Positions 1-14,519 of a DNA stretch of 21,378 bases are shown piece by piece. How positions within the stretch are numbered: position 1 is the first letter of the stretch; each line of letters opens with the position of its first letter. The notes under the pieces are model-generated. The model was not told the origin of the DNA and ran no database searches. It was given only the letters and a program-made list of their open reading frames with translations. Source of the stretch: a virus; the UHGV virus genome UHGV-0079970; one strand, given 5' to 3'. The position numbers were made by a program, and so were the translations under genes.

Positions 1-1219
1 GCCCCGATGGCGTGTCGCCGCCGGGCGAGGGTTTGATTTCCGGTGCCTTACCACTAATGAAGGCTAAGGTGCGACCGGCTACGTTCAGAATAGCAGTTGC
101 CATACGATCGGGAATAATGCCACGACGCGCCCATGAGCTGAAATGCGTCGGGCGATTTGATGATACCCAGTTTTTGTTCGTTCGGGATGCCGAACCGTAA
201 TAACCAGACCCGGCAATATCAGGATCTTCTGACGGGTTGTTTGTCGGTGTATTAACTCCGCTACCATCGGTCATAAAGGGAACAAAATAAATCTGCTGGG
301 ATTCTTTACCTTTATATGCACCATATACCACTTCATATTGCGTACCGTGTTCTTGTTTCCACGCGTATGTCGTGTCGCCACAAATCCAGGGGACTGATGC
401 CGGACTTCCACCGTGACACTGCGCCGCCAGCCCGGCAAGGTCAGCACGGAACTGCTGTACCATTGCAAGAAATGCTGCTGGCTGCTGGGCGTAACTGGCA
501 TTCGTCATATCGAATTCCCCCTGCATCCAGCATATCGCCAGCAAAACGTTTTTCGGGTTTTTCTGCAATGCTGCCTTCGTGCGGAAAAGCAGATCCTGAT
601 ATAACGGCTTACCCACTCCCCAGCGAGCCGAATCCTGACTGGCCCCCGTGGACTCGCTGAATGTCCCCTCCGTGCCCTGGGTGAATGCCGAACCACCACG
701 ACAGCATGGTACCAGCAGGATCCCCGCGTTATTAGGGATATACGGAAGCAGTTTTTTGGCAATATGTAAGCCCTGTCCGACACAGCCGTACTGCCCTTTG
801 CTCAGGTCAGCCCGGGGATGGTTAATCGTACTCATATCCTGAACATCATGCAGACAATGGTCAGCAGGAATGATGTCGTTAAATACGCATACTTCACCAC
901 CGGGAGTCACTGTGTTACGACGGGCCAGTTGCTTAATGCGCGGATGGGGCGCATCGTATGAATCCGGCAGCGGAAGCCCTTCACCGTAAGCCATGGCATT
1001 GGACTGCCCGGCCAGTACGATGACGTAGTACCACTCCGGCTCAGTTGCACCACTGACGACCACATCACCTTCTGCTGCAATCGCCTGCATCAGGGTATAA
1101 GGGGTTATGGCCACCGGACTACCAAACGGCTGCCAGCCCTCTTTCAGTTTATGTGTCAGCTTTTCCGCAAGATCTGACGGCGACGCCGCCCTGACAACAT
1201 CATAGTGTTTAAATGCCAT
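1..1219 (-). CDS. NanS-p-like SGNH/DUF303-family esterase (putative sialate O-acetylesterase), N-terminal 406 codons; 3' end beyond window
   Basis: Uninterrupted minus-strand frame from ATG at 1219 (GGAGG 6 nt upstream) to position 1, verified codon by codon; absent from the ORF track because no stop is in the window. Begins MAFKHYDVV and contains the block VLAGQSNAMAYGEG (GQSN, SGNH-hydrolase type). Sits after a late-region tRNA cluster as in Stx phages. Family assignment is from memory. Confidence 0.5.
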   Translation of the reverse strand, partial: MAFKHYDVVRAASPSDLAEKLTHKLKEGWQPFGSPVAITPYTLMQAIAAEGDVVVSGATEPEWYYVIVLAGQSNAMAYGEGLPLPDSYDAPHPRIKQLARRNTVTPGGEVCVFNDIIPADHCLHDVQDMSTINHPRADLSKGQYGCVGQGLHIAKKLLPYIPNNAGILLVPCCRGGSAFTQGTEGTFSESTGASQDSARWGVGKPLYQDLLFRTKAALQKNPKNVLLAICWMQGEFDMTNASYAQQPAAFLAMVQQFRADLAGLAAQCHGGSPASVPWICGDTTYAWKQEHGTQYEVVYGAYKGKESQQIYFVPFMTDGSGVNTPTNNPSEDPDIAGSGYYGSASRTNKNWVSSNRPTHFSSWARRGIIPDRMATAILNVAGRTLAFISGKAPEIKPSPGGDTPSG

Positions 1220-1412
1220 GAATCCTCCCGGCCGGGATAATATTGTGAGTAAAATGAGGAGCGGGCTGAAGTCCGGAAGTTACAGGACAATGGCAGAAGA
1301 GAGACAACAGCCCGCAATACGAAAAAGGCCGCGCTATTGCGCAGAGTGATTACTGTCGGATATTATTCGCCAGCTGAAATATTACTTCACGTTTTGTTGT
1401 TTATTCCTTGCC

Positions 1413-1441
1413 GCCCGCGTCTCCCAGCGCGGGCTTTTTTT
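1413..1441 (+). terminator. Rho-independent terminator-like hairpin (plus strand)
   Basis: 7-bp GC stem GCCCGCG (1413-1419) / CGCGGGC (1428-1434), 8-nt loop, followed by T7 (1435-1441). Confidence 0.45.
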
Positions 1442-1444
1442 GTC

Positions 1445-1472
1445 CATAAGAAAGCCCCTCCGGAGAGGGGCT
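1445..1472 (-). terminator. Second hairpin, possible minus-strand terminator (weak T tail)
   Basis: 8-bp stem AGCCCCTC (1453-1460) / GAGGGGCT (1465-1472), 4-nt loop; on the minus strand followed by TTTCTTAT. Together with the 1413-1441 hairpin forms a back-to-back pair. Confidence 0.3.
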
Positions 1473-1708
1473 GGAGAGTGGCGCTATGTGCCATTGCATG
1501 GTGCCGGGTGCCTCCCGGTGAATTCAGTACCAGCACCTGAATCCGCGATTATCCCATATACCTACTCGCTGATTGCCCCTCCGCACAGGGGGATTCACCA
1601 TGCCAGTTTCTTTTAACAAACTCCCCGCAAACCAGACAACAGTCAACCGCCTAAATTGTGAGACATTTAAAAAAAAGGCCCACAAAAGCGAGCCAGGGAA
1701 AATAAGTG

Positions 1709-1785
1709 TGGCGCGTTGTACTGGATTCGAACCAGTGACCGATTGCTTAGAAGGCAATTGCTCTGTCCGGCTGAGCTAACAACGC
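1709..1785 (-). tRNA. tRNA-Arg (anticodon TCT)
   Basis: Minus-strand 77 nt, GCGTTGTTAGCTCAGCCGGACAGAGCAATTGCCTTCTAAGCAATCGGTCACTGGTTCGAATCCAGTACAACGCGCCA: 7-bp acceptor stem, D arm, anticodon loop CTTCTAA, T arm GGTTCGAAT, encoded CCA. Confidence 0.85.
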
Positions 1786-1798
1786 ATGATGCAGATAA

Positions 1799-1875
1799 TG
1801 GACCGCCATCGGGGACTTGAACCCCGCGCAACCAGCTTCGAAGGCTGGCGCTCTTTCCTGATGAGCTAATGGCGG
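1799..1875 (-). tRNA. tRNA-Arg (anticodon TCG)
   Basis: Minus-strand 77 nt, CCGCCATTAGCTCATCAGGAAAGAGCGCCAGCCTTCGAAGCTGGTTGCGCGGGGTTCAAGTCCCCGATGGCGGTCCA: cloverleaf with C1-G72 acceptor pair, anticodon loop CTTCGAA, T loop TTCAAGT, encoded CCA. Confidence 0.75.
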
Positions 1876-1882
1876 TATGTGA

Positions 1883-1958
1883 TGGTGGCCCTTGCTGGAT
1901 TTGAACCAGCGACCTGGCGATTATGAGTCGCTCGCTCTCACCACTGAGCTAAAGGGCC
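1883..1958 (-). tRNA. tRNA with CAT anticodon, tRNA-Ile2 (lysidine) type / Met
   Basis: Minus-strand 76 nt, GGCCCTTTAGCTCAGTGGTGAGAGCGAGCGACTCATAATCGCCAGGTCGCTGGTTCAAATCCAGCAAGGGCCACCA; anticodon loop CTCATAA; closely resembles E. coli tRNA-Ile2 as I recall it. Confidence 0.8.
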
Positions 1959-2007
1959 GGGAGCAGAATAATAATGGTGCGTAATTAATTCTGCAATCTC
2001 ATCCGTT

Positions 2008-3057
2008 TCAAACGATTAAATCCTGAACTTCCCTGACTGTCTGCTCAAAACGTCCGGTCTCCAGTTCAACGCCAATCGCACGACGCCCGAGCGCCAGTGC
2101 AGCTTTTACCGTTGAACCTGAGCCCATAAAAAAATCTGCAACCAGGTCTCCCGGACGACTGCTTGCGCTGATTATCTGCTGCAGCATTTCTGCCGGTTTT
2201 TCGCACGGATGTTTCCCGGGATAGAACTGCACCGGTTTATGTGTCCACACATCCGTGTACGGCACCTGCGCCGTCACACCAAAATACCGCCGCAGATGCT
2301 TATATTCACTATGCAGCTCCACATACTGCCGGTTCAGTGACGTATACGTATCCACCAGCTGGTGGTGGGGCTTTTCCAGTTCACCGCGCTGATGTTTCTC
2401 TTCTGCCACCCGGGCAAACAGCGACTGTAATTTCAGATAATCGCTTTCGTTCGGTAGCTGCCACTGACTGGCACTGAACCAGTGCGACACCATGTTTTTC
2501 TTTCCTGTGGCATCTGCAATCTGTTTTGCCGTTATCCCCAGGGCAGCTCGCGCATCACGAAAGTAAGAAATCAGCGGGGCCATCACATGCTGTTTCAGTG
2601 CACTGCCCTTCGCCGCATACCCGGCATCTTTCGGACGATACGGCCCCTGATAATGTTCCGCGAACAGAATGCGCTCTGTGGCGGGGAAATACGCCCGCAG
2701 GCTTTCCTTGTTGCATCCGTTCCAGCGTCCGGACGGCTTCGCCCAGATAATATGGTTCAGCACACTGAAGCGTTCACGCATCATGATTTCGATATCAGAT
2801 GCCAGGCGATGACCACAGAACAGGTAAAGACTTCCGGCAGGTTTCAGCACCCGCCAGAACTGCGCCAGACACTGGTCCAGCCACTTCAGGTAATCATCGT
2901 CGCCCTTCCACTGGTTATCCCAGCCCTCGGGTTTCACTTTAAAGTATGGCGGGTCTGTGACTATAAGATCGACAGAGTTTTCCGGTAAGGTCTGGATAAA
3001 TTCCAGGCAATCAGCGTTGATTAACTCACAACTGGATATTTTTACAGTATTAGCCAT
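2008..3057 (-). CDS. N6-adenine (or N4-cytosine) DNA methyltransferase, beta-class
   Basis: 349-aa ORF; motif IV LIVTDPPYF near the N-terminus and AdoMet motif FFMGSGST near the C-terminus (order typical of beta-class amino-MTases). Confidence 0.8.
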   Translation of the reverse strand: MANTVKISSCELINADCLEFIQTLPENSVDLIVTDPPYFKVKPEGWDNQWKGDDDYLKWLDQCLAQFWRVLKPAGSLYLFCGHRLASDIEIMMRERFSVLNHIIWAKPSGRWNGCNKESLRAYFPATERILFAEHYQGPYRPKDAGYAAKGSALKQHVMAPLISYFRDARAALGITAKQIADATGKKNMVSHWFSASQWQLPNESDYLKLQSLFARVAEEKHQRGELEKPHHQLVDTYTSLNRQYVELHSEYKHLRRYFGVTAQVPYTDVWTHKPVQFYPGKHPCEKPAEMLQQIISASSRPGDLVADFFMGSGSTVKAALALGRRAIGVELETGRFEQTVREVQDLIV

Positions 3058-3193
3058 AGATCAATAAGCACTTCTCTGATAGGCTCATACCGCTTTTGCG
3101 CAAAGCAGATGGGCCTGAGGTTTGCTTGTGACCCCAACGCATGAGCAGATGGCTGGCAGGTGCCGCTAACACCCACCAGCCGCCCATTACCAC

Positions 3194-3221
3194 AAATAAA
3201 AAAGCCTTCACTGAGGAAGGC
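3194..3221 (-). terminator. Rho-independent terminator (minus strand) at the 3' end of the small wHTH gene
   Basis: Minus-strand 6-bp stem GCCTTC / GAAGGC (plus coords 3216-3221 / 3204-3209), 6-nt loop, then TTTTTTATTT; the stop codon of the small ORF lies inside the stem. Confidence 0.5.
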
Positions 3222-3405
3222 GTCTGTAACAACCGAACTGATAATCTGCCAGACCCGCCATAACAAGCTGGGTCAGTATTAACTGGCAACGTTCGCGTGA
3301 AAGGTAAGTATTCTGCGCAATTTCCCCGACGGTCGCCGGTTCGGTGACGCTTAATTCATTAAACACCACTCTGGCAGTTTCGGTCATATCCTGCTGTTTT
3401 AGCAT
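3208..3405 (-). CDS. Small winged-helix-like DNA-binding protein (65 aa), hypothetical regulator
   Basis: ATG at 3405 preceded by AAGGGA; product MLKQQDMTETARVVFNELSVTEPATVGEIAQNTYLSRERCQLILTQLVMAGLADYQ... has a helix-turn-helix-like pattern (VGEIAQNTYLSRERCQLILTQL). The ORF track extends it to 3642, which I consider unlikely. Transcribed divergently from the DUF262 operon. Confidence 0.4.
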   Translation of the reverse strand: MLKQQDMTETARVVFNELSVTEPATVGEIAQNTYLSRERCQLILTQLVMAGLADYQFGCYRRLPQ

Positions 3406-3528
3406 GTCTTTTTCCCTTTTCTGGTTAACGTGACATACCAATAACTCTTGTCTGAAAAGCCAGCAAGCTGAAAGACCGGTATTCGCAACCACCAGCACGT
3501 TTAACGTACTGCGCCGTTTTTCGGACAC

Positions 3529-3548
3529 AAAAAACCGCCTGGCGGCGG
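3529..3548 (-). terminator. Possible minus-strand terminator upstream of the small wHTH gene
   Basis: 5-bp GC stem (plus 3535-3539 CCGCC / 3544-3548 GGCGG), 4-nt loop, followed on the minus strand by T6 (plus 3529-3534 A6). Short stem, so weak. Confidence 0.3.
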
Positions 3549-3597
3549 GTTTAAGCTGTGTGGCGTAGTAACCACTCTTAACACGATATAATATTTT

Positions 3598-3626
3598 TTG
3601 CGTACGCGTTATAGTTTTCTTACAAT
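3598..3626 (+). promoter_or_regulatory. Candidate sigma70 promoter for the DUF262-HEPN operon
   Basis: -35 TTGCGT (3598-3603), 17-bp spacer, -10 TACAAT (3621-3626), in an AT-rich intergenic region; SD AAGGAA (3646-3651) 7 nt before the ATG at 3659. A separate perfect TATAAT at 3587-3592 lacks a -35. Confidence 0.35.
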
Positions 3627-3658
3627 CTATTTCCAACTCCAATTAAAGGAACAGTGAT

Positions 3659-4816
3659 ATGACCACACTCAAAGAACTCAAAGAAGAGCTTGCTCAGATT
3701 CAAGATGAAAACGCGAAAAATAGAAAAAAAGCTGAAATTGCAGCCTTGGTCACTTCTGCCGACAACGAGATTAGGCTTGCTCAGAGAAATATTGGATACA
3801 ACGTACGTGAATGGACCGTTGAATTAATTGTACAAAAGTATGGCAATAATCTTGAAACTGACAAAAACGAACTTTTTATTCCTGATTATCAACGCGATTA
3901 CAAATGGGATATCAAAACAGCCTCTCGATTCATCGAAAGTATATTATTAGATTTTCCAATCCCGTACCTCTACATCTCCGACGTATTTAATGAAGATCCT
4001 GAGTTGGATGGTCGTGTAGAAATTATTGACGGTTCACAAAGGATTCGCTCAATTTACTACTTTTGGAACAATCAGTTTGAATTGAAAGACTTAAAAGAAC
4101 TCAAAAGTTTAGAGGGCTTCAAATTTTCAGATCTTTTGGCTAGCCGCCAGAGGCGATTTTTAAGGGCATCACTAAGATTTATTGAATTGAAAGGTGATGT
4201 TGAGGAGCAACATAGAAGAGATTTATTCGAAAGAATAAATTCAGGTGTTAAGAGACTGGAAGCGATGGAGGTTAGACATGGTTCAGATGCGGCCACTTCA
4301 ATTTTCTATAGGGATGTTGTGACTCCTTGCTCAACAAATCCACTTTTCGCTAGTCTAGCTCCATTATCAGACCGGAAACGTTCGAATGGCGATCATCGTG
4401 AGTTAGTTTTGAGATTTTTTGCATACTTAAATGATTTAGAAAATTATAAGGGTTATGTCGCTCCTTTTATTGACAATTATCTTAATGTTCAGGCCGAAAG
4501 GGTCACACAACAAGATGTAGACAAATTTAAACATGATTTTGAAAGCATGCTTGCTTTTGTAGATGCTCATTTCCCTATGGGGTTTAAAAAGACACCAACA
4601 AGCAAAACCACCCCCCGTGCTAGATACGAAGCCATAGCAGTGGGAACTGCTCTTGCCTTAAAAGCCAATCCACATCTACAGGCTCCGGTTATTCCTGTAG
4701 GAGACTGGCTGTTTGGGGAGGAATTTGAAACCATAGTTACTGCTGATAGTGCCAACAACACCAGCCAACTCAAAAACAGAATATTTTATGTCAAAGATAA
4801 ATTATTAGGAATGTAA
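3659..4816 (+). CDS. DUF262 / ParB-like (GmrSD N-terminal type) domain protein, 385 aa; no recognisable DUF1524/HNH nuclease domain
   Basis: Motifs DYQRDYKW and IIDGSQRIRS (DGQQR-type DUF262 signature), later LFERINSGVKRLEAME; N-terminal ~60-aa coiled-coil-like extension. Strong RBS. AT-rich (~37-41% GC in hand-counted 100-nt samples). Confidence 0.75.
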   Translation: MTTLKELKEELAQIQDENAKNRKKAEIAALVTSADNEIRLAQRNIGYNVREWTVELIVQKYGNNLETDKNELFIPDYQRDYKWDIKTASRFIESILLDFPIPYLYISDVFNEDPELDGRVEIIDGSQRIRSIYYFWNNQFELKDLKELKSLEGFKFSDLLASRQRRFLRASLRFIELKGDVEEQHRRDLFERINSGVKRLEAMEVRHGSDAATSIFYRDVVTPCSTNPLFASLAPLSDRKRSNGDHRELVLRFFAYLNDLENYKGYVAPFIDNYLNVQAERVTQQDVDKFKHDFESMLAFVDAHFPMGFKKTPTSKTTPRARYEAIAVGTALALKANPHLQAPVIPVGDWLFGEEFETIVTADSANNTSQLKNRIFYVKDKLLGM

Positions 4817-4818
4817 CT

Positions 4819-5508
4819 ATGAGTTTGATTGATTTAAGAGATGAATACGAAGAAAGAGCAAGAGATATTATGGAATTGCTTTCTCTTGCGTCATCTTTAG
4901 AGGCTCAGACTCAGCAGTTAGATCAGCAAACGCATAAAGATGAAATAGAATCAAATACCCTTAGGGTTAACATTTTAAAATCATCCGTGCACATGATGCT
5001 GTACAATCAGGTTGAAAACACTGCCAGAGGATGCATTGAGTCAATTTATGACCATTTGCAAGATAATGAAGTAAATTACGCATCACTCAGGGAGAAATTC
5101 CAAGTAAATATCTTGCACCGTATCATTTCAGATAATGAATCGGGAAAATCTCTTTATCAAAAAATTGGTTCCGATATATCTAAAAGGATCATTTCAGCCT
5201 CATTAAACATACGTAAAGAATTCAATGGTAATGTTTGCAAGTCTGTATTGCACAAAATAACACAAGCTTACGGAATAACTGTTGCAAACTCACCAGAGTG
5301 TAGAAATGGTGTTGACTTAGATTTACTTAAAGATATCAGAAATGAGCTGGCACATGGAAGTACCAGCTTTTCTAAAAAAGGTCAAATAGACCCTTTAGAA
5401 GAAGTCAAATCGAGGTCAGAAAGAATTGATCTATATTTGCGTTTATTAATCAACTCAACAGAAAATTATATTACCTCTAACGGGTATTTATCCCCTCAAC
5501 ATGTCTGA
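4819..5508 (+). CDS. HEPN-motif protein (predicted RNase-type effector), 229 aa
   Basis: ATG 2 nt after the upstream stop (translational coupling) with AGGAA SD; canonical R-[N]-x3-H motif RNELAH (5338-5355) in the C-terminal third; rest mostly helical by composition. Confidence 0.6.
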   Translation: MSLIDLRDEYEERARDIMELLSLASSLEAQTQQLDQQTHKDEIESNTLRVNILKSSVHMMLYNQVENTARGCIESIYDHLQDNEVNYASLREKFQVNILHRIISDNESGKSLYQKIGSDISKRIISASLNIRKEFNGNVCKSVLHKITQAYGITVANSPECRNGVDLDLLKDIRNELAHGSTSFSKKGQIDPLEEVKSRSERIDLYLRLLINSTENYITSNGYLSPQHV

Positions 5509-6517
5509 TAAATGTTTCCCCTATTATCTGACCAATTATAGGGGGAACAGCATTTCCAATCATTGTCCCCAATTTTTGGAATGAAAAAGGCGTCTCCTTG
5601 TCAAGGAATTTATAATCCATTGGAAAGGATTGCAAAATCGCAGCTTCACGCAAAGTTATGGCGCGATTTTGCTCAGGATGGCCAAATCGTCCATTTCCAT
5701 ATCCATAACACTGGGTAGTTATCGTAGGGCTAGTATCGTCCCAAACCATCCGTCCATAAACGCTTTTATAGGTAGCACCTGAATTCTTTTTATGACAGTC
5801 TGCTCTAATTTCTTCAGGCCAGTCATCCCACGTACCACCAGGTAAAGAATGCATGATTCGTTTAAGATTGATATCCATCAATTTAGGCGAACGATGCAAG
5901 GGATCGCTTTCCAGCTTCTCACCTGCCCCTACTTTTGGCAACCTACCAATAGCATCCTTAACAGTAACTTTACGGCTAACTTTTTTTTGATCAAGGCTGA
6001 TCGGCCCCAATTGGGAACCAATTAGAATTAATCTACGTCTATTTTGAGGTAAGCCATACTCAGAACATCTTACAACGTCGTACCACAAATGATATCCAAG
6101 AGTCTTTAATGCACTAACAAACCCTTCAAAAACCTTATGGTTTCTAAGTTGAGGAACATTCTCCATCGTCACAAGCTCTGGCATGACATCACTTACAAGC
6201 CTTTGAAACTCATATAACAAACGCCACTTTGTATCGTCTTTACGGCTATTTGGATTACGATACTTGGAAAACGGTTGGCAAGGAGCACATCCAGCAAGCA
6301 ATCTAATATTTCCTTCCTTGAACATAGCAGACACATCGCAGGATTGCAGTTCTGTAACTGACTGATTAATGAACTGCGTTAAAGGATTATTGCTCTCAAT
6401 AGCAAAACGGCAGGATTCATCAATATCAATACCATGAGAAACCTCAATCCCGGCTTTTTTTAGCCCAAAAGTTAAGCCCCCCGCACCACAAAAAATGTCT
6501 ACTGCCTGAATGTTCAC
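5477..6517 (-). CDS. C5-cytosine DNA methyltransferase (Dcm/type II M family), 346 aa
   Basis: Motif I DIFCGAGGLTFG, catalytic PCQ in GCAPCQPFS, ENV, QNRRRL, GNAV. Start is GTG at 6517 with GGAG 6 nt upstream. 3' end overlaps the HEPN gene tail-to-tail by 32 bp. Confidence 0.9.
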   Translation of the reverse strand: MNIQAVDIFCGAGGLTFGLKKAGIEVSHGIDIDESCRFAIESNNPLTQFINQSVTELQSCDVSAMFKEGNIRLLAGCAPCQPFSKYRNPNSRKDDTKWRLLYEFQRLVSDVMPELVTMENVPQLRNHKVFEGFVSALKTLGYHLWYDVVRCSEYGLPQNRRRLILIGSQLGPISLDQKKVSRKVTVKDAIGRLPKVGAGEKLESDPLHRSPKLMDINLKRIMHSLPGGTWDDWPEEIRADCHKKNSGATYKSVYGRMVWDDTSPTITTQCYGYGNGRFGHPEQNRAITLREAAILQSFPMDYKFLDKETPFSFQKLGTMIGNAVPPIIGQIIGETFIRHVEGINTR

Positions 6518-6580: not shown

Positions 6581-6949
6581 TTACATAGAACTTAAGTCAT
6601 TGTAGTAAATGAAAAATGACAAGCAGCCATCAATAAACCCCATTGCTGTTTGCATCTCTTTCCGTATTGTTCCATCTGAACATTTCCGTTTTTTAGCAAT
6701 AGCGCGTAATGAGATACCAATAACAAAGTGAGCAATGATCAACTCATACTCTTCGGGTTTATACTTTCGCAACCGAGCCACACAACCGTCTATCATGATA
6801 CCTTCGTCATCATCACACTGGAGACGTGACTTTTTACCGTGTGGTAAAAGCCCCTTGAAGCCTGCTGCTATCGGCTGCCAGTCCACACCACTGTTATCTG
6901 CTGCAGCCCAGGCCCCCCAACGATCTAAAACTTCGTACATATCACGCAT
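6581..6949 (-). CDS. Q: Late-gene antiterminator Q-like protein (QuuD/Q-type), 122 aa
   Basis: N-terminus MRDMYEVLDRWGAWAA... and Cys cluster (C-x-D-D-D...GC...CSDG) match what I recall of lambdoid Q/QuuD proteins; lies between replication and late-region genes; start overlaps the upstream stop (TGATG). Confidence 0.65.
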   Translation of the reverse strand: MRDMYEVLDRWGAWAAADNSGVDWQPIAAGFKGLLPHGKKSRLQCDDDEGIMIDGCVARLRKYKPEEYELIIAHFVIGISLRAIAKKRKCSDGTIRKEMQTAMGFIDGCLSFFIYYNDLSSM

Positions 6950-11013: not shown

Positions 11014-11204
11014 GGACGCACCTCCGCCGTAGTTACGTATTTAACCGGGCTACCTTTCATTGAGATGGTTTCACACATCTCTGCCGCTTTCAGTTCCGCT
11101 GTTTTTCTGGATTTATAGCGACGGTGCCAGACAGATACATCCGTGCGAACTGATACATCGTTTCTGTATTCCGTAGTGGAGATGATGATTTCGTAACTAA
11201 TCAT
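11010..11204 (-). CDS. Hypothetical protein, 64 aa
   Basis: ATG with AAGGAGG 7 nt upstream; ATGA overlaps with both neighbours. Confidence 0.45.
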   Translation of the reverse strand: MISYEIIISTTEYRNDVSVRTDVSVWHRRYKSRKTAELKAAEMCETISMKGSPVKYVTTAEVRP

Positions 11205-12052
11205 GGGCGAACCTCCTTGTCAGAACCATTCAGCCTGGAATCAACAAGTGCAGCGCCAAAAACAGCATCACCAACACGGTCGTACAGTTTGCTAGCCAGC
11301 GGAGATTCAACGGCCTTAAGCATTGGATAAAGCTGGCTTGTCCAGATTTGATGGATTTCACGCAAATGCAGGTATACGCCTCTGGCGTTTCGTGCGACAG
11401 CTGACATATCAGACGCATCGGCACCTGATAAACTCTTCTCCATCAGGTTAAAGGCGTTGATGTATGCCTCTTTGAACTGGGCAGCACGTTTACCAGTGAA
11501 GCCCATGGCAAGAAACGCAAAACCGTCGCGGGTGATTTGGTAACAAGGGAGTTTGCGGCCTGATGCGTCGGTGTATTCACTTAACACAAAATTGTGTTCA
11601 GTAAATTCAGCGGAACATTCGAGGTTTCTAATTCTATCTAAAACCCGCTCATGCCGTTTAGTAAAGTAATTAGCTACTGCAAGAGATGTGGTGACAACGC
11701 GACCATTGATAATCGTGATTTCAGGGTGAGATTGGGTTGGGAGAGTAGTCATGGTGACAGCCCCTATGTTGAATTCAATGAACTCACCACCAAGGCTTTC
11801 CACGACCATATAGGTGGTGAGACGTACAGGGGTGGAAATACCGGTCAACATAGAACCCGGCCCAACCGAAGTTGGCCCTGCACGCCCCACCATAATTTGG
11901 GTGTAACGATGCTCATGACACGAAAAAACCGCATGAGCGCGGTTGTGCTCTATATTGAATTTCGGGTTTCCACGCCCGGCACCCGCTTTATAAGGTGCCT
12001 GAGCAGTGTAACGTCCCGGAATTGCAGAATCAATATGCTGGTGGCGGATCAT
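11201..12052 (-). CDS. Rha-family phage regulatory protein with an N-terminal extension, 283 aa
   Basis: C-terminal half has Rha-like motifs (SLAVANYFTKRHERVLDRIRNL ... ITRDGFAFLAMGFTGKRAAQFKEAYINAFNLME); N-terminal ~100 aa (IDSAIPGRYT..APYKAGAG..IMVGRAG) is paralogous to the next gene. GGGAGG RBS. Confidence 0.6.
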   Translation of the reverse strand: MIRHQHIDSAIPGRYTAQAPYKAGAGRGNPKFNIEHNRAHAVFSCHEHRYTQIMVGRAGPTSVGPGSMLTGISTPVRLTTYMVVESLGGEFIEFNIGAVTMTTLPTQSHPEITIINGRVVTTSLAVANYFTKRHERVLDRIRNLECSAEFTEHNFVLSEYTDASGRKLPCYQITRDGFAFLAMGFTGKRAAQFKEAYINAFNLMEKSLSGADASDMSAVARNARGVYLHLREIHQIWTSQLYPMLKAVESPLASKLYDRVGDAVFGAALVDSRLNGSDKEVRP

Positions 12053-12711
12053 AGGTGCACCTCCCGTTGATTACGACGGAACGCGGAGTGACCCTGGACG
12101 GTTTCAGCCTCATGGAATGCTTCAATACAGCTCTCGTAGTACCGCATTGTGCGCAGACTTAACCCAAGCTGAAGCATCATCAGACCATCAAGGGTGATGT
12201 AATAACCACGCAGGGAGTCACCGTAGATGTGATAAGTACCCGGTATGAAATTGCGGGTAAAAAACTCGCGTGAGCAGTTCAGATACTCGATTTTGTCAAC
12301 GATGTTCTGGTGCATGCGCTTGAAATGGCAGGCAACATGCAGGGAGAAAATAACGGCCTTGCCGTTGACGACTTCGATTTTTAGGAATGGGGAAGTTAGG
12401 ACAGTAGCCATGATGGCAGCCTCCGTTGACAGTGAAAAACTTCCACCACCGGAAACGCCAATTTCACTGGTGGTGAACTGGACGGGGTTGGCGTAACCGG
12501 CGTCAACGGAGACCGGCGCACCTTTCGGTGCCCCCGCCCAGCCCACCATAATCTGGATGTGAGCAAATGCGGACGATAAAAAAGACGCTGGCGCGTCATA
12601 CATCGCCGTTGACAATTTCAGGACGCCAATCCCGGCACCCGCTTTATAAGGTGCGGAGACAGTGTAACGTCCCGAAATTGCAGAATCAATATTTGGTCTT
12701 GAAATGATCAT
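12049..12711 (-). CDS. Paralog of the preceding gene, Rha-like (more diverged), 220 aa
   Basis: Aligns along its length with the 11201-12052 product (MIISRPNIDSAISGRYTVSAPYKAGAG ... IMVGWAG ... FSLHVACHFKRMHQNIVDKIEYL ... ITLDGLMMLQLG). No obvious SD at its ATG. Confidence 0.5.
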   Translation of the reverse strand: MIISRPNIDSAISGRYTVSAPYKAGAGIGVLKLSTAMYDAPASFLSSAFAHIQIMVGWAGAPKGAPVSVDAGYANPVQFTTSEIGVSGGGSFSLSTEAAIMATVLTSPFLKIEVVNGKAVIFSLHVACHFKRMHQNIVDKIEYLNCSREFFTRNFIPGTYHIYGDSLRGYYITLDGLMMLQLGLSLRTMRYYESCIEAFHEAETVQGHSAFRRNQREVHL

Positions 12712-13751: not shown

Positions 13752-13862
13752 TCTTTAGTCTCACACCAGATACTTTGTTATTCAACGATGTTAACCACAG
13801 GAATCCAAAGTATCAAGAAATTCTGTTACTTTAGTATCAACAGCCATGAGAGGAGAAGAAAA
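13752..13862. promoter_or_regulatory. Immunity-region intergenic with repeated operator-like motifs (OR-like)
   Basis: GATACTTTG (13769-13777) and its reverse complement CAAAGTATC (13806-13814) form a perfect 9-bp inverted repeat; a further AGTATCAA copy at 13833-13840; the same motif recurs downstream of cI. Confidence 0.4.
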
Positions 13863-14519
13863 ATGAAGTCTTTAGGTGAACGTCTCATCAACGCACGGCA
13901 AAAAGCTGGGTTAACACAAGATGCGTTGGCTAAAAAAGCTGGGATCACCAGAGTTGCAATCAGTAAAGCCGAGCAAGGCCTTACAAAAAGTTTCAACGGT
14001 GACACCCTTTTTAAAGTTGCAGCTGCACTGCGGTGTTCACCGCAGTGGCTTCAGAACGGAGATGAAAAAGATAAGCATTGGGAAAATAATGTTAAGAGCT
14101 GCCCACAGAGAGACACAGCACACTCTTACCCTGTAATTAACTGGGTTCAGGCAGGATTATTCGCAACTTCTGGTGATGACTACAACATGTATGATCAGGA
14201 TAATTGGAGGCATTCTGTAAAATACGCTGGTGAGAGGGGGTTCTGGCTGGAAGTGCACGGAGACTCAATGACTTCGCCCGTAGGAATAACATTTCCTGAA
14301 GGAATGTCGATCCTTGTCAACCCAGATAAAGAAGTTTTTTCAGGGTGTTACGTCATCGCCAGAAAAAAATCTACCAATGAAGCAACATTCAAAAAATATA
14401 TTTCTGACATGGGAAAGGCGTTTCTAAAGCCCCTTAATCCACAATATCCAATCATAGAAATGGACAATGATTGCGAAATAGTAGGTGTTGTGGTTGATGC
14501 CAGGTGGGATATTTTCTGA
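13863..14519 (+). CDS. cI: CI-type prophage repressor (N-terminal HTH, C-terminal S24 LexA-like autopeptidase)
   Basis: ATG at 13863 with GAGAGGAG SD (the ORF track's 13788 start is an upstream extension). HTH LTQDALAKKAGITRVAISKAEQG; catalytic Ser in GDSM and Lys in FKK; candidate Ala-Gly cleavage site in VQAGLF. C-terminal domain closely resembles lambda CI as I recall it. Confidence 0.9.
   Translation: MKSLGERLINARQKAGLTQDALAKKAGITRVAISKAEQGLTKSFNGDTLFKVAAALRCSPQWLQNGDEKDKHWENNVKSCPQRDTAHSYPVINWVQAGLFATSGDDYNMYDQDNWRHSVKYAGERGFWLEVHGDSMTSPVGITFPEGMSILVNPDKEVFSGCYVIARKKSTNEATFKKYISDMGKAFLKPLNPQYPIIEMDNDCEIVGVVVDARWDIF

Follow-up and report, generated by a model that had tools for sequence, protein, structure and literature searches.

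Convergent pairs of small RNAs (sRNAs) have been described 3' of the late promoter PR', at the moron site and before a conserved downstream ORF (Tree et al. 2014, PMC4104026). Such pairs are present in Sp3, Sp4, Sp5 (stx2), Sp9, Sp10, Sp11, Sp15, and Sp17, and their members include EcOnc27 with AsxR in Sp5, AgvB in Sp10 and Sp17, and EcOnc08/21/42 in Sp4 (PMC4104026). EcOnc27/sRNA103, which belongs to the STnc100 family, is an expressed, Hfq-associated RNA in homologues (PMC12370729, PMC4104026), and the location of STnc100/EcOnc27 downstream of stx2B, 75 nt downstream of stx2, is already documented (PMC12711010, PMC12370729). The 933W/Sp5 type of the Stx2a late region has also been described in the literature. 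For prophage PP6 of EPEC E2348/69, an Hfq-bound sRNA was found by RIL-seq and named ‘E2348C_1409.E2348C_1408.IGR’ (Pearl Mizrahi et al. 2021, PMC8550237). Its partners were the 5'UTR of cfa (767 chimeras), the 5'UTR of dppA (197), and pcm (118), with tir and perA as further partners, its targets had the common motif GGCAAGG, and its authors equated it with EcOnc08/21/42 of the O157 Sakai prophage Sp4 (PMC8550237). PasD and STnc100 were proposed to descend from a common ancestor (Zhu, Shabalina and Storz 2026 preprint).

Here, positions 1220-1960 of a 21,378-nt stretch of the virus genome UHGV-0079970 (the window) were compared with these systems. The segment is, with good confidence, an accessory (‘moron’) late-operon segment, in its common toxin-free form, of a lambdoid prophage that resembles phiP27 and is related to Stx phages; its two hairpins would be the Rho-independent terminators of a convergent Hfq-type sRNA pair. 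The arrangement is real, ordinary, and already described. The initial annotation had presented it as a late region with an empty toxin slot, and this is the one point of substance to correct: a known convergent sRNA locus, and not a vacated toxin slot, makes up the ‘non-coding gap with two hairpins’.

Methods

The phage-sense strand is the minus strand of the window. Intrinsic terminators were scanned over positions 1000-3700 with shuffled controls. Junctions and blocks were counted in 5426 complete E. coli genomes, with at least 80% of the query covered.

Prophage context and gene order

From integrase to late region, the window covers one half of a lambdoid prophage and, besides the genes in Table 1, encodes Rha/Ash regulators, a DnaC-like protein, DnaB, and, after Q, accessory genes. 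The closest phages over the whole window were PhiR49_2 (53% coverage, 93.5% identity) and phiP27 (52%, 89.9%), followed by Stx1a and Stx2a phages. The order on the minus strand is PR'/tR', methylase, tRNAs with their terminator, the convergent sRNA pair, nanS-p, and lysis genes. The identities, positions, and homologies of the parts and the exact stx2AB point at 1664-1668 come directly from the analysis (Table 1).

Table 1. Features of the window, with coordinates, strand, and the evidence used
Feature	Position	Strand	Evidence
Integrase	20230-21363		
S24 CI-type repressor	13788-14519		
Q	6949..6581	-	
Probable late promoter PR' and terminator tR' (hairpin 3548..3535 and T-run)	3529..3605	-	Homology, terminator scan
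N6/N4 DNA methyltransferase, directly upstream of the tRNAs	2008..3057	-	Pfam PF01555 at 3e-44
tRNA with CAT anticodon, ileZ-type tRNA-Ile2	1883..1958	-	ARAGORN (labels Met); Rfam tRNA, 72.5 bits
tRNA-Arg (TCG), argN-type	1799..1875	-	ARAGORN; Rfam, 59 bits
tRNA-Arg (TCT), argO-type	1709..1785	-	ARAGORN; Rfam, 70 bits
Intrinsic-terminator-like hairpin (1694..1677) and T8 (1676..1669), end of the tRNA cluster	1669..1694	-	Terminator scan
Apparent module junction, true ‘toxin slot’, ~5 bp	1664..1668	.	blastn breakpoints, junction sequences
Predicted STnc100-family sRNA gene, terminator hairpin 1472..1453	1442..1632	-	Rfam RF02076
Putative 3' core of convergent Hfq-type sRNA, EcOnc08/21/42 group	1373..1441	+	Identity to E2348/69 PP6
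G/U-rich box	1391-1402	+	Part of plus-strand RNA
Putative seed CCUUGCC	1406-1412	+	Part of plus-strand RNA
Predicted terminator, hairpin 1413-1434 and U7 (1435-1441)	1413-1441	+	Terminator scan
Candidate promoter TTGCGC-18-TATTAT, short (~69 nt) form	1337..1366	+	Inferred from alignment and sequence reading
Candidate promoter ATGCCA-17-GATAAT, long (~190 nt) form	1213..1241	+	Inferred from promoter scan
Predicted NanS-p-type 9-O-acetyl-sialic-acid esterase, 5' two-thirds, runs off the window	1..1219	-	Pfam, PDB match

The Stx2a-converting phages (e.g., Stx2_14040, accession LC567818) have the same order as the window from Q through the lysis genes, namely Q, PR'/tR', a small ORF, the N6/N4 methylase, and ileZ-argN-argO with the terminator, and, after the slot, an STnc100-family sRNA, a convergent antisense sRNA nearly identical to the plus-strand sRNA of the window, nanS-p, and the lysis genes. 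The window differs from them in that stx2A and stx2B (1332 bp) are missing at 1664-1668 and in having a Dcm/HEPN/DUF262 cassette between Q and PR'. Set against the definition of a Stx-converting phage, it is without stxA and stxB but shares the late-region synteny of Q, methylase, ileZ-argN-argO, and nanS-p. In TUM11356 (99.4%), the whole gene order is as in the window, the defence cassette included.

The description of the segment as a Stx-phage-like late region is borne out by the methylase-tRNA block, which was 94% identical to Stx2a phages, and by the phiP27 backbone (52% at 90%). The methyltransferase gene had 94% nucleotide identity to that of Stx2_14040, and the same gene occurs in Stx2a and phiP27 phages. 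The PR'/tR' segment was 92% identical to the post-Q segment of PPyecE_EH1910 and Stx2_14040, and Q of the window was 61% identical to Q of these two.

tRNA cluster and esterase gene

A cluster of Ile2/Arg/Arg tRNAs followed by a large esterase gene had been noted initially and was recovered here: ARAGORN and Rfam place three minus-strand tRNAs at 1958..1709 (Rfam tRNA scores of 59-72 bits), and a NanS-type gene runs from 1219. The tRNA with the CAT anticodon is a tRNA-Ile (ileZ type) by the annotation of near-identical RefSeq loci and of phages Nil3 and phiP27. The hairpin at the end of the cluster (fold of -11.9 kcal/mol, z -3.95) is conserved in Stx2_14040, Nil3, TUM11356, and E2348/69, and also stands before stx2A in Stx2a phages.

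The esterase gene begins with an ATG at 1219 on the minus strand. Its N-terminal homology, which had been proposed for checking, was confirmed, as the first 406 aa contain the Pfam domains DUF1737 and SASA and match PDB 3pt5 (NanS/YjhS) at an E value of 1.4e-122. In the TUM11356 locus (99.4% identical) the full length is 618 aa, and relatives are annotated as SASA family esterase, yjhS, or NanS. By its N-terminal DUF1737 and SASA domains, the gene is predicted to encode a NanS-p-type sialate O-acetylesterase.

Predicted convergent sRNA genes

The gap between the tRNAs and the esterase gene (1220-1708) is 489 bp long, in agreement with the ~490 bp free of protein genes and toxin ORFs that had been reported; no Pfam match was obtained for its ORFs, and stx was not found by blastn or tblastn. 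As a ‘non-coding’ stretch the gap was described correctly in that it has no credible protein gene, but the two predicted sRNA genes inside it had been missed. The terminator scan, in which 1000-3700 yielded 8 sites and shuffled sequence 2.5 +/- 1.3, recovered both back-to-back GC-rich hairpins that had been placed at 1413-1441 and 1453-1472 (1413-1434 with T7 on the plus strand, and 1472..1453 on the minus strand). The two hairpins are best read as Rho-independent terminators of an STnc100-family RNA in phage sense and of an EcOnc08/21/42-type RNA on the opposite strand. A further hairpin at 1344..1329 (minus strand) was no more stable than shuffles (z +0.33) and for this reason is not claimed as a terminator. 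Rfam matches to OmrA-B, anti-hemB, SgrS, and snoRNA in the hairpin region were far under the gathering scores and were regarded as chance.

On the minus strand, the match to RF02076 at 1632..1442 scored 138 bits (gathering score 47; E 2e-32) and covered model positions 1-206 of 206. The fold of 1442..1632 was -74.4 kcal/mol (z -2.2), and the terminator has a poor U-tract (UUCUUAUGG). By the covariance model this would be an sRNA gene of the STnc100 family, which is named EcOnc27/sRNA103 after stx2B and is related to PasD. The family is found at the same position on the phage-sense strand in four comparison loci, including the non-Stx prophage PPyecE_EH1910, where AgvB is convergent to it, and Stx2_14040, where the copy downstream of stx2B scores 159 bits; prophages of the FDAARGOS_1290 type have 2-3 tandem copies. 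PasD1 and PasD2 of EPEC, upstream of a sialic-acid esterase, occupy the same niche as the window sRNA (Zhu, Shabalina and Storz 2026 preprint), but unlike them the window copy is STnc100 proper, and the PasD seed UGUGAG was not found by direct reading of 1442-1632.

On the plus strand, a 156-base query around the hairpin was 99.4% identical, with one mismatch, to EPEC E2348/69 PP6, and the published 3' end of the EPEC sRNA (NC_011601:1444797) corresponds to window position 1441. The northern probe for EcOnc08/21/42 of Sakai (PMC4104026) is the reverse complement of window 1332-1366. The 3' core folds with z -2.8, and the target motif GGCAAGG is complementary to CCUUGCC at 1406-1412. These identities point to an RNA of the EcOnc08/21/42 type, equivalent to the EPEC PP6 IGR sRNA, with which it has the 3' end and the seed CCUUGCC in common; in E2348/69 PP6 the facing STnc100 is cut by ISEc13 and one tRNA-Arg is missing, whereas both are intact in the window. 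The transcription, Hfq binding, and targets of the window sRNAs would be those of the EPEC and EHEC homologues, from which they are carried over.

The plus-strand RNA, its TTGCGC and TATTAT boxes, and its terminator are conserved in the alignment of TUM11356, E2348/69, FDAARGOS_1290, and the Stx2a phage, and the candidate promoter at 1337..1366 aligns with the AgvB promoter TTGCGC-17-TAAAAT of PPyecE_EH1910. The 5' end is ambiguous and may lie near 1373 (69 nt) or near 1248 (~190 nt), or the RNA may be of ~270 nt. The candidate long form is consistent with the estimate of 182 nt in EPEC (PMC8550237) and with the northern band of ~271 nt for EcOnc08/21/42 in Sakai (PMC4104026), and it would overlap, in antisense, the 5'UTR and start codon of the esterase gene.

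The plus-strand hairpin occupies exactly the place of AgvB in PPyecE_EH1910, convergent to an STnc100-type sRNA. The -35 box (TTGCGC) and the frame are common to AgvB and the plus-strand RNA, but the body differs in the alignment, the ~42-nt conserved 3' region of AgvB/AsxR being replaced by a different body and terminator. The Rfam models for AgvB (RF02702) and AsxR (RF02703) gave no match at E <= 10 in 1220-1710, while the AgvB model scores 96.5 bits in PPyecE_EH1910, and the RNA was therefore not filed under AgvB or AsxR.

Pairing of the 5' 40 nt of the RNA with the RIL-seq windows of cfa and dppA in E2348/69 was no better than with shuffles, both by RNAduplex and by longest perfect helix. 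The 7-bp helices seen, CCUUGCC:GGCAAGG (cfa) and UUUUGUU:AACAAAA (dppA), were reached by ~30% of shuffled sequences, so that it is the published target motif that argues for use of the seed. When the G/U box was paired by hand with the GcvB site close to the ribosome-binding site of dppA, the pairing lay outside the RIL-seq chimera window and was set aside.

The position and convergent layout of the window pair are the same as those of the moron-site pairs of Tree et al. It could still be argued that the hairpins are a mere bidirectional insulator and the Rfam match conserved phage DNA, with no functional sRNA genes here. This is improbable. The full-length covariance-model match takes in internal helices besides the terminator, and in EHEC and EPEC the homologues were detected by CRAC, northern blot, and RIL-seq as RNAs bound by Hfq. 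The plus-strand RNA is preceded by conserved promoter boxes at a position shared with the mapped AgvB promoter, and STnc100 is amplified in tandem in other prophages. In favor of an insulator are the back-to-back GC-rich hairpins, which could stop transcription from either side, STnc100 being without a proven target, and the dispensability of the sRNA copies in some relatives, where STnc100 is split by ISEc13 in PP6 of E2348/69 and PhiR49_2 keeps just part of it.

A dual function of the plus-strand RNA can be suggested tentatively, although we consider it rather unlikely. The long form, as the antisense of both the start codon and the ribosome-binding site of nanS-p, may damp expression of this gene in the lysogen, and the 3' core may act in trans on host mRNAs (cfa, dppA). 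AgvB is a GcvB sponge with CACAACA, and the plus-strand RNA has an opposite-sense G/U-rich box, GUUUUGUUGUUU, together with CCUUGCC. Because AgvB, AsxR, and the plus-strand RNA share a promoter-terminator frame, the plus-strand site would act as an exchangeable ‘seed cassette’, and if this is true, different prophages could push common host targets, e.g., dppA, in opposite ways.

The stx2AB junction and the frequency of the toxin-free state

In blastn alignment with Stx2_14040, the window had 94% identity over 3100..1668, which covers the methylase, the tRNAs, and the tRNA terminator, and 71-81% identity over 1665..85, which aligned to phage DNA starting 41 bp past the stop codon of stx2B. Since the homology ends at 1668 and restarts at 1665, the phage has 1332 bp (its positions 4435-5766, with stx2A, stx2B, and short flanks) where the window has just AAATG at 1668..1664. 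The slot is this point of ~5 bp, and the equation of the whole gap with an empty toxin slot had to be abandoned, as the 490-bp gap appears to hold the conserved convergent-sRNA module that is also present between stx2B and nanS-p in Stx2 phages.

A search with the stx2AB cassette by blastn (word size 7) and with Stx2A/B by tblastn over the 21 kb gave chance-level matches alone, and no duplication, inverted repeats, or stx remnant were found at 1664-1668. Alignment to Stx2 late regions had been suggested as a way to reveal a clean stx2AB deletion; the absence is indeed base-precise, but no footprint of insertion or deletion accompanies it. An ATCTG motif is present at both cassette ends in Stx2_14040 but at 5 bp is too short to interpret.

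With Stx2c phages and the Stx2e phage phiP27, too, the left-hand homology stops where it does with Stx2_14040, and phiP27 has stx2e directly after the tRNAs. In other phages the left-hand neighbour of the same right-hand module, which again starts at 1664-1668, is tciAB (JLK-2012), sequence other than the tRNA cluster (PhiR5_1), or a post-Q ORF. As one right-hand module stands beside unrelated left neighbours, positions 1664-1668 read as a mosaic module boundary and not as a deletion scar. The junction of toxin-free loci falls in or beside a T-run common to both modules, so that the direction, gain or loss, is not readable from the sequence.

The toxin-free junction was present in 937 of the 5426 genomes and the tRNA-Arg-to-stx2A junction in 553, so that the toxin-free form is no rarer than the stx2-occupied form. 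The 3.1-kb methylase-tRNA-sRNA-esterase block was found in 1123/5426 genomes, with identity up to 99.4% and with ST131, APEC, and environmental isolates among the hosts. Closed junctions are also present in the sequenced stx-negative phages Nil3 (AM051322, 99.3%), phi296/315/367, TL-2011a, PPwrbA_EH2201, and PhiR49_2. In stx-negative phages and in the TUM11356 and ST131 prophages, as in the window, the STnc100 module follows directly on the tRNA-Arg terminator. Differences from the window are ~40 additional bases behind this terminator in vB_EcoP_phi296 (Traversvirus tv86) and the lack of nanS-p in PhiR49_2.

The toxin-free configuration is therefore the common state, and recent loss of the toxin is unlikely. 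The suggestion of a stx-negative relative, or of a prophage that lost or never acquired the toxin, stands in its first part, given the phiP27-like backbone, and not as far as recent loss is concerned. A common state without a toxin-insertion footprint, which had been named at the outset as the objection to an empty slot, is largely what the counts and the junction reveal.

A recent derivation from an Stx2 phage by precise deletion of stx2AB, which would make the locus a vacated slot, is accordingly very improbable. No Stx phage of the collection is close on both sides, with at most ~94% identity on the tRNA side and 71-87% to Stx2a phages on the sRNA-esterase side (~94% to Stx2 phage 86), whereas across the full 3.1 kb the identity to toxin-free loci is 97.4-99.4%. 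The toxin-free junction is spread over many pathotypes, the window has no stx remnant, and the joining of the right-hand module to unrelated left neighbours at the same point argues for a mosaic boundary. The base-precise absence relative to Stx2_14040 and the homology of the flanks to Stx phages would fit a deletion, and the ATCTG repeats could mediate one, which for 5 bp is weak. Nothing indicates recent carriage of the toxin by this prophage.

Small open reading frames of the gap

That the gap encodes at least one small protein, such as the 68-aa ORF at 1573-1779 or a pseudogene fragment called by PGAP, has next to nothing to recommend it: the ORF matches phrog_27294 at E 8e-45, in relatives PGAP places an ‘incomplete hypothetical protein’ within the counterpart of 1488-1613, and phage phi296 has three small ORFs by PHANOTATE, but the first runs antisense across tRNA-Arg and its family has no known function and derives from automatic ORF calls, the second is antisense and inside STnc100, and the small ORFs of the gap (43-77 aa) are without a Pfam match and start with TTG or GTG. 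The conservation of the PHROG-matching ORF and of the PGAP fragment follows from their overlap with RNA genes, and the small ORFs were rejected as genes.

Proposed operation and use for annotation

In a lysogen, both sRNAs would be made from their own promoters and bound by Hfq, as judged from the EHEC and EPEC homologues. Each would stop at its own hairpin, which would also shield the other sRNA gene. The plus-strand RNA with Hfq would pair via CCUUGCC, and perhaps via the G/U-rich box, with host mRNAs, for example in the cfa and dppA 5'UTRs, and the long form, if it exists, would be antisense to the translation start of nanS-p and could mask it. Upon induction, as is standard for lambdoid phages, Q would act at PR' (~3605..3529, with the tR' hairpin), and the Q-modified polymerase would pass tR', the tRNA terminator, and the sRNA terminators, leading to expression of the tRNAs, nanS-p, and the lysis genes.

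These results carry little weight as a discovery but are useful for annotation. The stretch from the tRNAs or stx to nanS-p is routinely left blank or given spurious small ORFs, while it holds a conserved pair of sRNA genes whose products, in EPEC and EHEC, reach mRNAs of host metabolism and of virulence. The stx2AB genes stand at a sharp module boundary directly behind the terminator of the tRNAs, and toxin-free loci are found widely among non-STEC E. coli, so that the presence of a ‘Stx-phage late region’ should not be taken for evidence of toxin loss.

The codons decoded by the three tRNAs are AUA, AGA/AGG, and CGA. In dcm and the HEPN and DUF262 genes nearby, these codons reach 49-74 per 1000, compared with 78 per 1000 in stx2A and 10-24 per 1000 in the esterase, methylase, and replication genes.

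A three-gene cassette at 3659-6517 is flanked by the stop codon of the late antiterminator gene Q (6581) on one side and by the probable late promoter and its terminator, PR'/tR' (~3605..3529), on the other, and is not part of the late transcript. The cassette has the look of a defence island against other phages, carried by the prophage, and E. coli TUM11356 has the same arrangement. In related phages, both Stx and non-Stx, the stretch immediately following Q matches the probable PR'/tR' segment, from which a short PR' leader RNA could be made. Coordinates are listed in the table.

Late-promoter, cassette and Ash/Rha-region features
Feature	Position	Strand	Evidence or note
Probable PR' promoter and tR' hairpin (CCGCCGCCAGGCGG, then T-run)	3529-3605	minus	92% identity to post-Q segment
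DUF262/GmrSD_N protein	3659-4816	plus	PADLOC NsnA 5.6e-46, PD-T4-2_A 4e-27
MAE_28990-type HEPN nuclease	4819-5508	plus	Cassette gene
C5 cytosine methyltransferase (dcm)	6517..5477	minus	Cassette gene
C4 antisense RNA and isrK Hfq-binding RNA, two tandem copies	11810-11998, 12466-12654	minus	RF01695, 81-82 bits; RF01394, ~62 bits

The three phage tRNAs read AUA, AGA/AGG and CGA. In the three cassette genes (dcm, HEPN and DUF262) the frequency of these codons is 49-74 per 1000, much as in stx2A of the Stx2a phage Stx2_14040 (78 per 1000); for the esterase, the methylase and the replication genes it is just 10-24 per 1000.

The copy number of the STnc100-family sRNA, which lies between the tRNAs and the esterase, differs between prophages. 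Many carry it in tandem as two strong copies and one weak (for instance, E. coli FDAARGOS_1290, locus L004, 2968-3645), which results in a 975-bp gap. In prophage PP6 of EPEC E2348/69 (locus L003, 4118-4430), STnc100 is broken by an ISEc13 element with the plus-strand sRNA still intact. The ORFs placed in the sRNA/tRNA region by automatic annotation are doubtful; these are a 68-aa ORF at 1573-1779 (plus strand) antisense to tRNA-Arg that matches phrog_27294 (E 8e-45), a PGAP "incomplete hypothetical protein" antisense within STnc100 of relatives (L005, 7488-7613), and three small PHANOTATE ORFs in the equivalent region of phage phi296 (L009, 2667-3097). The sRNAs are annotated in none of the records with these calls.

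Each of the tandem Ash/Rha-domain genes (11201-12052 and 12049-12711) contains one C4/isrK copy.
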